This document shows, piece by piece, positions 30,500 to 32,931 of a stretch of DNA of 64,000 bases. The notes under the pieces are model-generated. The model made no database searches. It had not been told where the DNA came from and saw nothing but the letters and a program-made list of their open reading frames with translations. Location of the stretch: NCBI RefSeq assembly GCF_056712565.1, contig NZ_CM160072.1. One strand, 5' to 3'. A program made the translations under genes and the position numbers. Position 1 is the stretch's first letter. Every line of letters begins with the position of its first letter.

Positions 30500-31852
30500 A
30501 TGGCACTTGCAATGAAAGTAATCTCTCAAGTTGAAGCGCAGCGCAAGATTCTGGAAGAAGCAGTTTCGACTGCGCTGGAGTTGGCCTCAGGCAAATCGGA
30601 CGGTGCGGAAGTTGCCGTCAGCAAGACCACCGGCATTAGCGTAAGCACGCGTTATGGTGAAGTGGAGAATGTTGAATTCAATAGCGATGGCGCGCTGGGG
30701 ATCACCGTTTATCACCAGAACCGTAAAGGTAGCGCATCGTCTACCGATTTAAGCCCGCAGGCCATTGCCCGCACCGTACAGGCGGCGCTGGATATTGCCC
30801 GTTACACTTCGCCAGATCCGTATGCAGGCGTGGCAGACAAAGAACTGCTGGCCTTTGACGCACCGGATCTCGACTTGTTCCACCCTGCGGACGTTTCTCC
30901 GGATGAAGCCATTGAACTGGCGGCCCGCGCGGAACAGGCGGCATTGCAGGCGGACAAACGCATCACCAATACCGAAGGCGGTAGCTTTAACAGCCACTAC
31001 GGTGTCAAAGTTTTTGGCAACAGCCACGGCATGTTGCAGGGTTACTGCTCAACGCGTCATTCGCTCTCCAGTTGTGTAATCGCCGAAGAAAATGGCGATA
31101 TGGAGCGCGATTATGCCTACACCATTGGGCGTGCGATGAGCGATCTGCAAACGCCAGAGTGGGTTGGGGCCGACTGTGCGCGCCGTACTTTATCGCGCCT
31201 GTCACCGCGTAAACTTTCTACCATGAAAGCGCCGGTGATTTTTGCCAATGAAGTGGCAACAGGGTTGTTTGGTCATTTGGTGGGGGCGATAGCGGGTGGT
31301 GCGGTCTACCGTAAATCGACCTTCTTGCTCGACTCGCTCGGTACACAAATTCTGCCGGACTGGCTGACAATTGAAGAACATCCGCATCTGCTGAAAGGGC
31401 TGGCATCTACACCATTCGACAGCGAAGGTGTGCGCACCGAGCGCCGCGATATCGTCAAAGATGGCATCCTGACTCAGTGGCTGCTGACCAGCTATTCGGC
31501 GCGGAAACTGGGGCTGAAAAGCACCGGACATGCGGGCGGTATTCACAACTGGCGGATTGCCGGACAAGGGCTAAGCTTCGAACAAATGCTCAAAGAGATG
31601 GGCACCGGGCTGGTGGTGACGGAGCTGATGGGCCAGGGCGTGAGTGCCATTACCGGTGATTATTCCCGTGGTGCAGCGGGCTTCTGGGTAGAGAACGGCG
31701 AAATTCAGTATCCGGTGAGCGAAATCACCATCGCTGGTAATTTAAAAGATATGTGGCGCAATATTGTCACCGTCGGTAACGATATTGAAACACGCAGTAA
31801 TATACAGTGTGGTTCTGTGCTGTTGCCGGAGATGAAAATCGCCGGGCAGTAA
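30500..31852 (+). CDS. pmbA: metalloprotease PmbA/TldE
   Basis: 450-aa ORF. Confidence 0.9.
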
Positions 31853-31894
31853 AAAAACTGGCGCGTCCTGCCGCGCTATAAACTAAAAAATTAC

Positions 31895-32010
31895 ACAAAA
31901 TCATTCGCACTGCATCGAGACGGAAAGTGAATGAGAGCAGGGGAGCGTACTCGTAGTACGTGACTCGGGCGAATGAGCGTAGCCGTCGATGAGGCAGTGT
32001 GAAGGATGAA
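31895..32010. repeat. ERIC/IRU-like imperfect palindromic intergenic element (diverged)
   Basis: GTGAATgagagcAGGGGAGCgTACtcgtAGTACGTGACTCGGGcGAatGAGCG resembles ERIC core; central palindrome CGTACT-cgt-AGTACG; by-eye comparison to remembered consensus. Confidence 0.45.
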
Positions 32011-32032
32011 GTGTAAATAAAAAAGGAAGTGA

Positions 32033-32422
<390 letters not shown>

Positions 32423-32466
32423 TTCTTTATTTCCCTGTTGCCTGCACTCAGGTAACAGGGAACTTA

Positions 32467-32931
32467 TCATCGCAAATGATGCACCACCTGATTGCTGCTG
32501 CCGCGCCAGATCAGGGAAGGGTCTTTTAAATCCTGCACAAATTTGCCGTCGACCAGCACGTTAATCAAATCAACAACCTGCATTTGCGCAGCGTTGAGTT
32601 CGTCGAGTTTATAGCCTGTCCACACCCAGATGTCTTTACCCGGACACTCGGCGCGGATGCGTTGTACCAGTTTCAGAATATCCGGCACGTTTTGCGGATG
32701 TAGCGGATCGCCGCCGGAGAGGGAAATACCCTGGCGTTTGATACGAGTGTCATTCAGATCGTTAATGATCTGGTCTTCCATTGCTTTGGTAAATGGCTGA
32801 CCGGAATTTACCCGCCAGGTGCTTTTGTTATAGCAACCGGGGCATTCATGAACACACCCGGAGACAAACAGGGTGCAGCGAGTGCCGGGGCCGTTGACGA
32901 TGTCGACAGGATAGTACTGATGATAGTTCAT
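32467..32931 (-). CDS. nrdG: anaerobic ribonucleotide reductase activating protein (radical SAM)
   Basis: 154-aa ORF; CxxxCxxC cluster motif. Confidence 0.9.
   Translation of the reverse strand: MNYHQYYPVDIVNGPGTRCTLFVSGCVHECPGCYNKSTWRVNSGQPFTKAMEDQIINDLNDTRIKRQGISLSGGDPLHPQNVPDILKLVQRIRAECPGKDIWVWTGYKLDELNAAQMQVVDLINVLVDGKFVQDLKDPSLIWRGSSNQVVHHLR

Follow-up and report, generated by a model that had tools for sequence, protein, structure and literature searches.

The element described here lies in the 183-bp spacer between pmbA and cybC, two co-oriented genes in a 64-kb stretch of DNA (the window, by which we always mean the whole stretch that was analysed). The window is E. coli; its spacer is 100% identical to that of strain ZJ3920 and 99.5% identical to that of UPEC 536. 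The element starts 37 nt past the pmbA stop codon and ends 18 nt ahead of the cybC ATG, and its position in the 5' region of cybC, as claimed in the initial annotation, is therefore confirmed. The pmbA-cybC synteny is common to most Enterobacteriaceae. The TAAAAAAGGAAGTGAGCA block ahead of the cybC ATG is kept across genera, and the short GC hairpin just past the pmbA stop codon is also kept in the spacers of C. amalonaticus, Kosakonia, Kluyvera and Atlantibacter. In K-12, cybC is a pseudogene (b4236) whose start has been taken out by a 26-bp deletion; the element is still there, and the NC_000913.3 annotation gives no repeat feature at the site. Literature searches on cybC together with pmbA or ERIC gave no relevant paper, and none of the papers that could be searched mentions the copy. 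The coordinates of the features are collected in Table 1.

Table 1 Features of the pmbA-cybC region (positions are those of the window)
Feature	Position	Strand	Basis
pmbA (tldE), upstream gene	30500-31852	+	ORF list and RefSeq annotation of matching genomes
Short GC hairpin just past pmbA stop; terminator-like only on the minus strand (then T7)	31861-31876	-	terminator scan
TAAAAAA, left copy of 7-nt direct repeat	31884-31890	+	sequence
Complete ERIC/IRU element, 127-128 bp	31890/31891-32017	+	consensus alignment, profile HMM and covariance model agree
Left outer arm (terminal inverted repeat), starts TTACAC	31891-31916	+	inverted repeat; paired in minimum-free-energy fold
Variable core, site of nearly all E. 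coli allele differences	31931-31975	+	allele comparison
Apical hairpin GCGTACT-CGT-AGTACGT, element centre	31945-31961	+	sequence and fold
Right outer arm, ends GTGTAA	31991-32016	+	inverted repeat; paired with left arm
TAAAAAA, right copy of 7-nt direct repeat	32018-32024	+	sequence
cybC ribosome-binding region AAGGAAG	32023-32029	+	start overlapped by right TAAAAAA copy
cybC (cytochrome b562), downstream gene, intact, 128 aa	32036-32422	+	ORF list and annotation of matching genomes

The element was compared with the 127-nt E. coli ERIC consensus of Wilson and Sharp (2006), as printed in Delihas 2007 (PMC2759123, Table 1a). The two sequences align end to end and in one orientation, with 86 of 129 columns identical (67%), and a semi-global alignment to the consensus places the copy at 31891-32017. 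The likeness to ERIC that had been claimed at the outset was borne out by a local alignment score of 47, as compared with 15.8 ± 2.5 and a maximum of 27 in 500 shuffled sequences (z about 12). A covariance model was then built from eleven ERICs (the consensus, four E. coli loci, two from Citrobacter, one from Salmonella, two from Morganella and one from E. whittamii), none of which was a copy from the pmbA-cybC locus. When searched with the filters off, this model matched 31890-32017 on the plus strand over model positions 1-127 with 94.1 bits (E 3.8e-21). Apart from the reverse strand of the same site (18.3 bits), nothing in the rest of the window scored above 14 bits (best 13.6), and by consensus alignment and covariance model alike the pmbA-cybC copy is the only ERIC in the 64 kb. 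An nhmmer profile made from the covariance-model alignment gave E 3.5e-20 for the element in a 5-Mb search space. Together with the identity of 67%, these scores substantiate the initial description of a diverged ERIC/IRU-like element.

Plain blastn with the ERIC consensus found no match at the site, and the ERIC1R and ERIC2 primers had no match in the window with three or fewer mismatches. These misses were first taken as evidence against an ERIC, a reading that was overturned by the profile and the covariance model. "Diverged" is the right word because consensus blastn finds nothing and the primers have more than three mismatches, and consensus-based catalogues could miss the copy. With more than three mismatches at both primer sites, the copy would not prime ERIC-PCR. 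The core of the element, which is the primer-targeted central inverted repeat, is still recognisable (GTGAAT, GAGCxTAC, AGTAxGTGACTxGGG and TGAGCG) and still pairs. The results demonstrate a full-length but diverged ERIC/IRU miniature inverted-repeat copy, and we regard the identification of window positions 31890-32017 as an ERIC as virtually certain.

The extent of the palindrome had to be revised. The interval given at first, 31895-32010 or about 110 bp, falls inside the true element, whose span by alignment, HMM and covariance model is 31890/31891-32017 (127-128 bp). The proposed centre, CGTACT-cgt-AGTACG, was read correctly: it forms the apex and is present in the fold. The ERIC2-primer-sense strand is the plus strand, the same sense as pmbA and cybC. 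The two outer arms are 26 nt each and 77% complementary. The 7-nt direct repeats flank exactly 127 bp and could be a target-site duplication or a chance occurrence in A-rich DNA. The copy resembles ERIC/IRU elements in its length of 127-128 bp, its end-to-end alignment, its long imperfect hairpin with two-sided pair changes, its co-oriented neighbours and its membership in a multi-copy family, but differs in its termini, which are TATAC...GTATA in the consensus and ATTACAC...GTGTAAA in the window copy. The latter have one TA inside each end, and no clean flanking TA-TA duplication is visible.

The relation of the copy to the rest of the family was examined in 5,426 complete E. coli genomes. 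With the ERIC consensus as query, a median of 13 places per genome was obtained, yeiL-psuT and ybhJ-ybhI included. With the window copy as BLAST query the median was three full-length places, the additional ones being the queA-acpH and rhlB-gppA spacers. The ERICs of these two spacers are the closest copies, with identities to the window copy of 76% (queA-acpH) and 71% (rhlB-gppA). In a joint alignment, identity to the consensus was 89-91% for yeiL-psuT and ybhJ-ybhI, 84% for queA-acpH, 73% for rhlB-gppA and 67% for the window copy. The last three share the sub-family signatures ACAAAATCATTC, TGCATCGAGA(C/T)GG, TGAATGA and GGCAGTxTGAAGGATGAAGTGTA, and all three lie just upstream of the start of the downstream gene in the same orientation to it. 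They differ in how they meet that gene. At queA-acpH the last base of the ERIC is also the first base of the acpH ATG, at rhlB-gppA the ERIC contains the gppA ATG, and in both the likely Shine-Dalgarno sequence (AAGGA, right arm) is within the stem, whereas the cybC Shine-Dalgarno sequence and ATG lie 6-18 nt outside the element.

Rfam holds no ERIC family, and the only match of the element there was V_AS5 (RF02818), at 25 bits (E 0.0047) over model positions 1-129, which is far short of the gathering score (96). ERICs of the canonical type from E. coli and Citrobacter gave matches of the same full-length kind, likewise below threshold, at 30-48 bits; the V_AS5 match is therefore weak independent support. 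The Vibrio RNA AS5 has the core GUGACUGGGGUG and the hairpin architecture in common with the window ERIC, and V_AS5 seems to represent a Vibrio relative of ERIC rather than the enterobacterial family. That family, under the names ERIC, IRU and RU-1, was reportedly described by Sharples and Lloyd in 1990 and Hulton et al. in 1991 and is said to have been treated also by Wilson and Sharp in 2006. The window copy is filed here as a previously unannotated, diverged member of it.

Folding of the element as plus-strand RNA gave a single interrupted hairpin of -54.7 kcal/mol, as compared with -29.0 ± 3.3 kcal/mol for dinucleotide shuffles (z -7.9; not one of 200 equalled it), and the hairpin shape was unchanged in a 231-nt context fold. 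The stable RNA structure that the initial annotation had foreseen is thus supported by prediction. The minus strand reached -36.5 kcal/mol (z -5.4). Conservation of the fold was assessed in a MAFFT alignment of 21 strand-checked copies (ten pmbA-cybC orthologues and eleven other ERICs), for which RNAalifold returned the same long hairpin. Standard pairs filled 97.5% of the sequence-by-pair cells, as opposed to 83.6 ± 1.0% in column shuffles and 32-46% when the partners were slid by 1-3 columns; as 10 of the 21 rows are orthologues of one locus, these cell counts overstate the independent events. Changes on both sides were found in 17 of 32 pairs, against 9.5 ± 1.1 in shuffles and 2-5 in the slid controls, for a structure that was derived from the same alignment. 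In the apical stem (alignment columns 58-70) the consensus CTTAC/GTAAG has become CGTAC/GTACG in the window copy, with both sides changed and the pair kept, and the consensus helix CCCCAG/CTGGGG reads (G)CCGGG/CCCGG(T) in most pmbA-cybC alleles. A significant alignment to ERIC and a conserved secondary structure are both present.

G-U occupies one pair position in 16 of the 21 copies and another in 19, and these two positions are the cause of the difference in folding energy between the strands. The G-U positions point to pairing that matters as RNA and not as DNA. They are a family property, the same in ERICs of either orientation, and are no evidence on the pmbA-cybC locus itself. Template-switch (quasi-palindrome) mutation is another possible source of pair-keeping changes in a palindrome, one that requires no selection on the RNA. 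The element could accordingly be a dead ERIC that persists without function and owes its pair-keeping changes to intramolecular template switching. Such a signature was seen in Escherichia sp. MOD1-EC7003, where three clustered changes (GTGAAT to GTGCAT and TGAGCG to TGCACG) perfect a helix, and the same view gains from the window allele being the weakest folder of the seven E. coli alleles compared (-54.7 as against -60 to -64 kcal/mol). Its main difficulty lies in the rate at which the element has diverged.

The age of the insertion was judged from its distribution. One genome per species was scanned with a CybC query, giving 57 loci. The six other Escherichia genomes that were retrieved, namely those of two divergent E. 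coli, two Escherichia sp., E. whittamii and E. albertii, all carry an orthologous ERIC at the same position and in the same orientation at the pmbA-cybC junction, and their spacers measure 181-183 bp. A comparison with other genomes at this junction had been suggested at the outset. Most other genera have spacers of 30-95 bp without an element at that position and keep the TAATAATAAAAAAGGAAGTGAGCA block before the ATG. Since the same copy is found in all six of these Escherichia genomes and is absent at that place in other genera, the insertion is older than the split between the sampled Escherichia lineages. In Citrobacter and Salmonella, the pmbA-cybC spacers carry an independent ERIC in reverse orientation that abuts the upstream stop codon.

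Divergence of the element from the window copy was 1.6-7.0%, as compared with 20-29% at fourfold-degenerate sites of pmbA and cybC in the Escherichia species, a ratio of 4-14 (Fisher p 6e-6 to 1e-9). Recent recombination was considered as a source of this low divergence and rejected, because a binned comparison showed ordinary coding divergence right up to the spacer and no extended tract of low divergence. The low divergence therefore indicates a copy that is both old and constrained. Differences among E. coli alleles numbered 0-1 in the 83 nt of the outer arms and 2-6 in the 45 nt of the core (31931-31975). The left outer arm showed no variation among the six other E. coli alleles compared, and the right third (31976-32017) had no differences from the window in four of the six other Escherichia genomes, E. 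albertii included. Template switching does not explain a divergence this far below that of fourfold sites, and neither the near invariance of the outer arms nor the conservation of the entire spacer, unpaired parts included, is what a functionless remnant would lead one to expect. On this evidence we consider it probable that the hairpin is under selective constraint, and a relic without function rather unlikely. Wilson and Sharp are reported to have found that E. coli ERICs evolve slowly, keep their pairs and vary in presence and absence.

Presence and absence do vary at this locus. The filled spacer was found in 3,885 of the 5,426 complete E. coli genomes, and about 1,540 (~28%) have a 54-bp spacer without the element and an intact cybC. 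The element is thus dispensable, a fact that agrees with an inert copy, as does its retention in K-12 beside a cybC pseudogene. Presence/absence polymorphism among related genomes is evidence of past mobility. The natural empty allele has the sequence GCGCCAAATCTTCATAATAAAAAAGG. Filled alleles read GCGC, then TATAAACTAAAAA and the element, then ATAAAAAAGG, and empty alleles read GCGC, then CAAATCTTCATA, then ATAAAAAAGG, so that the two states differ by a substitution block of 12-13 nt with no clean TA site. The empty allele was considered both as a clean excision product and as a clean pre-insertion site, and neither fits the filled and empty junctions. An identical empty junction occurs on two flanking haplotypes, one of which is the window's own haplotype (strain E12), and one pair of filled and empty alleles has nearly identical flanks. 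The empty state should be derived, given that all other Escherichia genomes retrieved are filled. Despite this expectation, the empty E. coli allele keeps a CATAATAAAAAAGG motif and in this resembles the empty spacers of other genera.

A difference between filled and empty alleles that simple insertion does not explain might suggest that the palindrome acts as DNA, be it as a cruciform, a protein-binding site or a recombination hot spot. The spacer has been struck by ERIC independently, in both orientations and in different genera, with deletions and remnants seen, and in one E. coli genome a deletion has its end point inside the element. In a cruciform, however, the conserved G-U positions would turn into G-T or A-C mismatches, many internal loops interrupt the stem, and no protein-binding motif is described for ERIC (PMC2229807, Table 1). 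We consider a role at the DNA level to be highly improbable.

The element was also examined for signals of transcription. A promoter scan of 31400-32500 found no sigma-70-like site, and relaxed matching over 31750-32030 gave a best match of 7/12, with none in the right arm. Some bacterial miniature inverted-repeat elements do have outward promoters (PMC3184786), and this one stands where other genera have a TAATAAT block ahead of AAAAAAGGAAG; given that the scan revealed no promoter-like hexamer pair, it is nonetheless extremely improbable that the right end of the element drives cybC. The empty spacers of relatives, at 30-95 bp, are too short for a separate promoter. No plus-strand intrinsic terminator was found between pmbA and cybC in the terminator scan, in which terminator-like sites occurred on the minus strand only. 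Neither the element nor the short hairpin qualifies as a Rho-independent terminator of pmbA, since there is no plus-strand U-run: AAAUAAAAAAGG follows the element and UAUAAACU follows 31861-31876.

The minus-strand sites raise the question of whether the element stops antisense transcription through cybC, for example nrdDG read-through, before it enters pmbA. Read on that strand, the ERIC hairpin is followed by UUUUUU (the complement of 31885-31890, an A6 run directly beside the element) and then by the second, GC-rich hairpin with its U7 (31876-31861, tail CAGTTTTTTT to 31854), and the minus-strand fold of the element is itself significant. That fold is, however, much weaker than that of the plus strand because G-U pairs become A-C mismatches, and the stem base is AU-rich and interrupted, unlike that of an intrinsic terminator. 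Moreover, the short GC hairpin is present in genera that lack the ERIC, so the element is not needed for it, and between 32422 and 32467 there is a convergent hairpin that belongs to nrdG itself. It is therefore very unlikely that the element serves as a terminator or insulator on the minus strand.

With no recognisable promoter and no plus-strand terminator, the element is most likely transcribed in the sense orientation. Read-through from pmbA, or else a weak start close beside the element, would carry transcription into cybC, placing the hairpin either in a pmbA-cybC read-through transcript or in the cybC leader. Masking of the cybC Shine-Dalgarno sequence was considered and set aside: in the 231-nt fold the hairpin is self-contained, and the only pairing partners of the ribosome-binding region are early cybC codons. 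As the hairpin does not pair with the ribosome-binding site, direct translational masking is unlikely. The persistence of the element in K-12, where the cybC start is deleted, likewise speaks against a role confined to the translation of cybC.

A hairpin of about 55 kcal/mol might instead form a structural obstacle or a signal for processing, and thereby determine how stable the pmbA and cybC segments of the mRNA are in relation to each other. In passages of PMC2229807, PMC3184786 and PMC10969869 that summarise De Gregorio et al. 2005, ERICs of Yersinia that are co-transcribed with flanking genes are stated to alter mRNA levels in an orientation-dependent manner. The pmbA-cybC copy resembles the co-transcribed ERICs of Yersinia enterocolitica in being a hairpin between genes. 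Those elements are proposed to control, depending on their orientation, how stable the flanking mRNA segments are, and the pmbA-cybC copy may act by the same route, through RNase E and 3' exonucleases. It differs from the destabilising Yersinia ERICs, which are reportedly at the upstream stop codon, in starting 37 nt past that of pmbA. De Gregorio et al. reportedly found in 2005 that the destabilising Y. enterocolitica ERICs abut or overlap the upstream stop codon and that ribosomes unmask an RNase E site in them. The window ERIC would be in the stabiliser-type orientation and not of the ribosome-unmasked RNase E type (the Yersinia "A"/"B" assignment), on the grounds of its distance from the pmbA stop codon and of an orientation opposite to that of the stop-abutting Citrobacter and Salmonella ERICs. 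The hairpin would then be expected to stabilise or insulate, as a barrier at the pmbA 3' end or as protection at the cybC 5' end.

An action on the pmbA/cybC mRNA at the RNA level is put forward tentatively, as a possibility suggested by sequence and predicted folding. The explanation as a whole, namely an old and constrained ERIC that is likely co-transcribed as a hairpin and affects pmbA/cybC mRNA, is the one that we favour on balance. A more far-reaching version, which we consider doubtful, is that the ERIC was co-opted as a cis-acting pmbA-cybC RNA before the sampled Escherichia diverged, that the spacer is a preferred ERIC target, and that the recurrent empty allele arises by a defined removal or conversion. 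If true, co-option would account for a dead mobile element that evolves more slowly than synonymous sites by a factor of 4-14, and the identical empty allele on two E. coli haplotypes would reflect defined removal or conversion and not random deletion.

The element is of an ordinary kind, and its discovery has little importance beyond annotation. Diverged ERICs of this type escape consensus BLAST, ERIC-PCR primers and current RefSeq annotation, and a small profile or covariance model is enough to recover them cleanly. With its filled and empty alleles and, in other genera, inverted ones, the locus offers a natural experiment on ERIC function in E. coli. That the copy is so strongly conserved from one Escherichia species to another lends support to the published view of ERICs as RNA structures under constraint, as opposed to neutral debris.

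Comparison of the window with E. coli alleles lacking the ERIC element (loci L004 and L006) demonstrated that these empty alleles carry CAAATCTTCATA where TATAAACTAAAAA and the element would be (window 31877-32017), and the interpretations of the empty allele as a clean excision or as a clean target site were both rejected. The identical empty junction occurs on two distinct flanking haplotypes, one of which is the window's own haplotype. E. coli JNE141411 (L018) has a deletion at the 3' end of pmbA that takes out the stop codon of this gene together with the left spacer and the left ERIC half; the annotated pmbA reading frame, now 5 codons longer, continues into the right ERIC half and stops there. 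A GC hairpin lies 3' of pmbA, and while its T-run is on the minus strand in the window, a T6 run follows the equivalent Atlantibacter hairpin on the plus strand. The polarity of this terminator-like structure thus varies among genera.

The cybC pseudogene of K-12 (loci L005 and L008) arose through the loss of 26 bp, start codon included, corresponding to GTGAGCAATGCGTAAAAGCCTGTTAG at window 32027-32052, and its deletion junction reads AAGGAACTATTCTTGCA. A sigma-54 ChIP-seq site, 'IS52', has been assigned to cybC (PMC4591121), and its sequence is identical to this junction. The 'IS52' binding site is therefore a by-product of the deletion, specific to K-12, and the site is missing from the window, where cybC is intact.

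The E. coli ERICs closest to the window copy are those of the queA-acpH and rhlB-gppA spacers, both of which reach the start codon of the gene that follows. At acpH, the ATG starts at the final base of the ERIC, while the gppA ATG (position 1619 of L002) is located inside its ERIC. For both genes, the sole Shine-Dalgarno-like AAGGA is found within the right arm of the ERIC hairpin, an arrangement that suggests translational masking by the hairpin at acpH and gppA. Individual E. coli genomes range from about 4-6 consensus-like ERIC places (e.g. JJ2434, M16807 and SCU-484) up to 12-17 in other strains, which suggests that ERIC content is lineage-specific.

Features in the window and in loci retrieved from other genomes
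Feature	Location	Strand or orientation	Genome and remarks
GC hairpin 3' of pmbA	window 31861-31876		T-run on minus strand only (A7 on plus-strand side, 31854-31860)
ERIC, queA-acpH	L001:1496-1623		E. coli
ERIC, rhlB-gppA	L002:1495-1621		E. coli
ERIC-core element	L023:3565-3692	minus	E. whittamii, ~1.2 kb downstream of cybC
ERIC copy 1	L056:1690-1815	minus	Morganella psychrotolerans
ERIC copy 2	L056:3032-3157	plus	Morganella psychrotolerans
Canonical ERIC, pmbA-cybC spacer upstream of cybC	L030, L033, L037	reverse	Citrobacter (L030, L033); Salmonella enterica subsp. diarizonae (L037)

The E. whittamii element combines an ERIC core with different termini (TTTTCGC...GCGAAAA); its covariance model score of 125.8 bits is not independent, because the sequence was used in building the model. 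The equivalent place in the window has no counterpart of this element. In Morganella, cybC is not adjacent to pmbA and is flanked by the two oppositely oriented ERICs.

The canonical ERICs of the Citrobacter and Salmonella pmbA-cybC spacers are oriented opposite to the window element and lie immediately 3' of the pmbA TAA. This orientation and placement indicate an insertion independent of the Escherichia one. Related Citrobacter genomes (L027-L029, L035, L038 and L041) retain 43-nt ERIC remnants with an internal deletion, and the spacers of C. braakii, C. youngae and S. arizonae hold TACTCG alone, which is similar to an ERIC end. In the 185-bp spacer of Citrobacter amalonaticus S646 (L025), the remnant of an ERIC end (TACCCGCTATACTTCGAA...GGATTATTCAGGGTAT) precedes an unrelated second palindrome, ~110 nt in length (AAGAGCCCGGCCATCAGGC...GCCTGATGGCCTGGCTCT). 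The pmbA-cybC spacer appears to be a palindromic-repeat hot spot.
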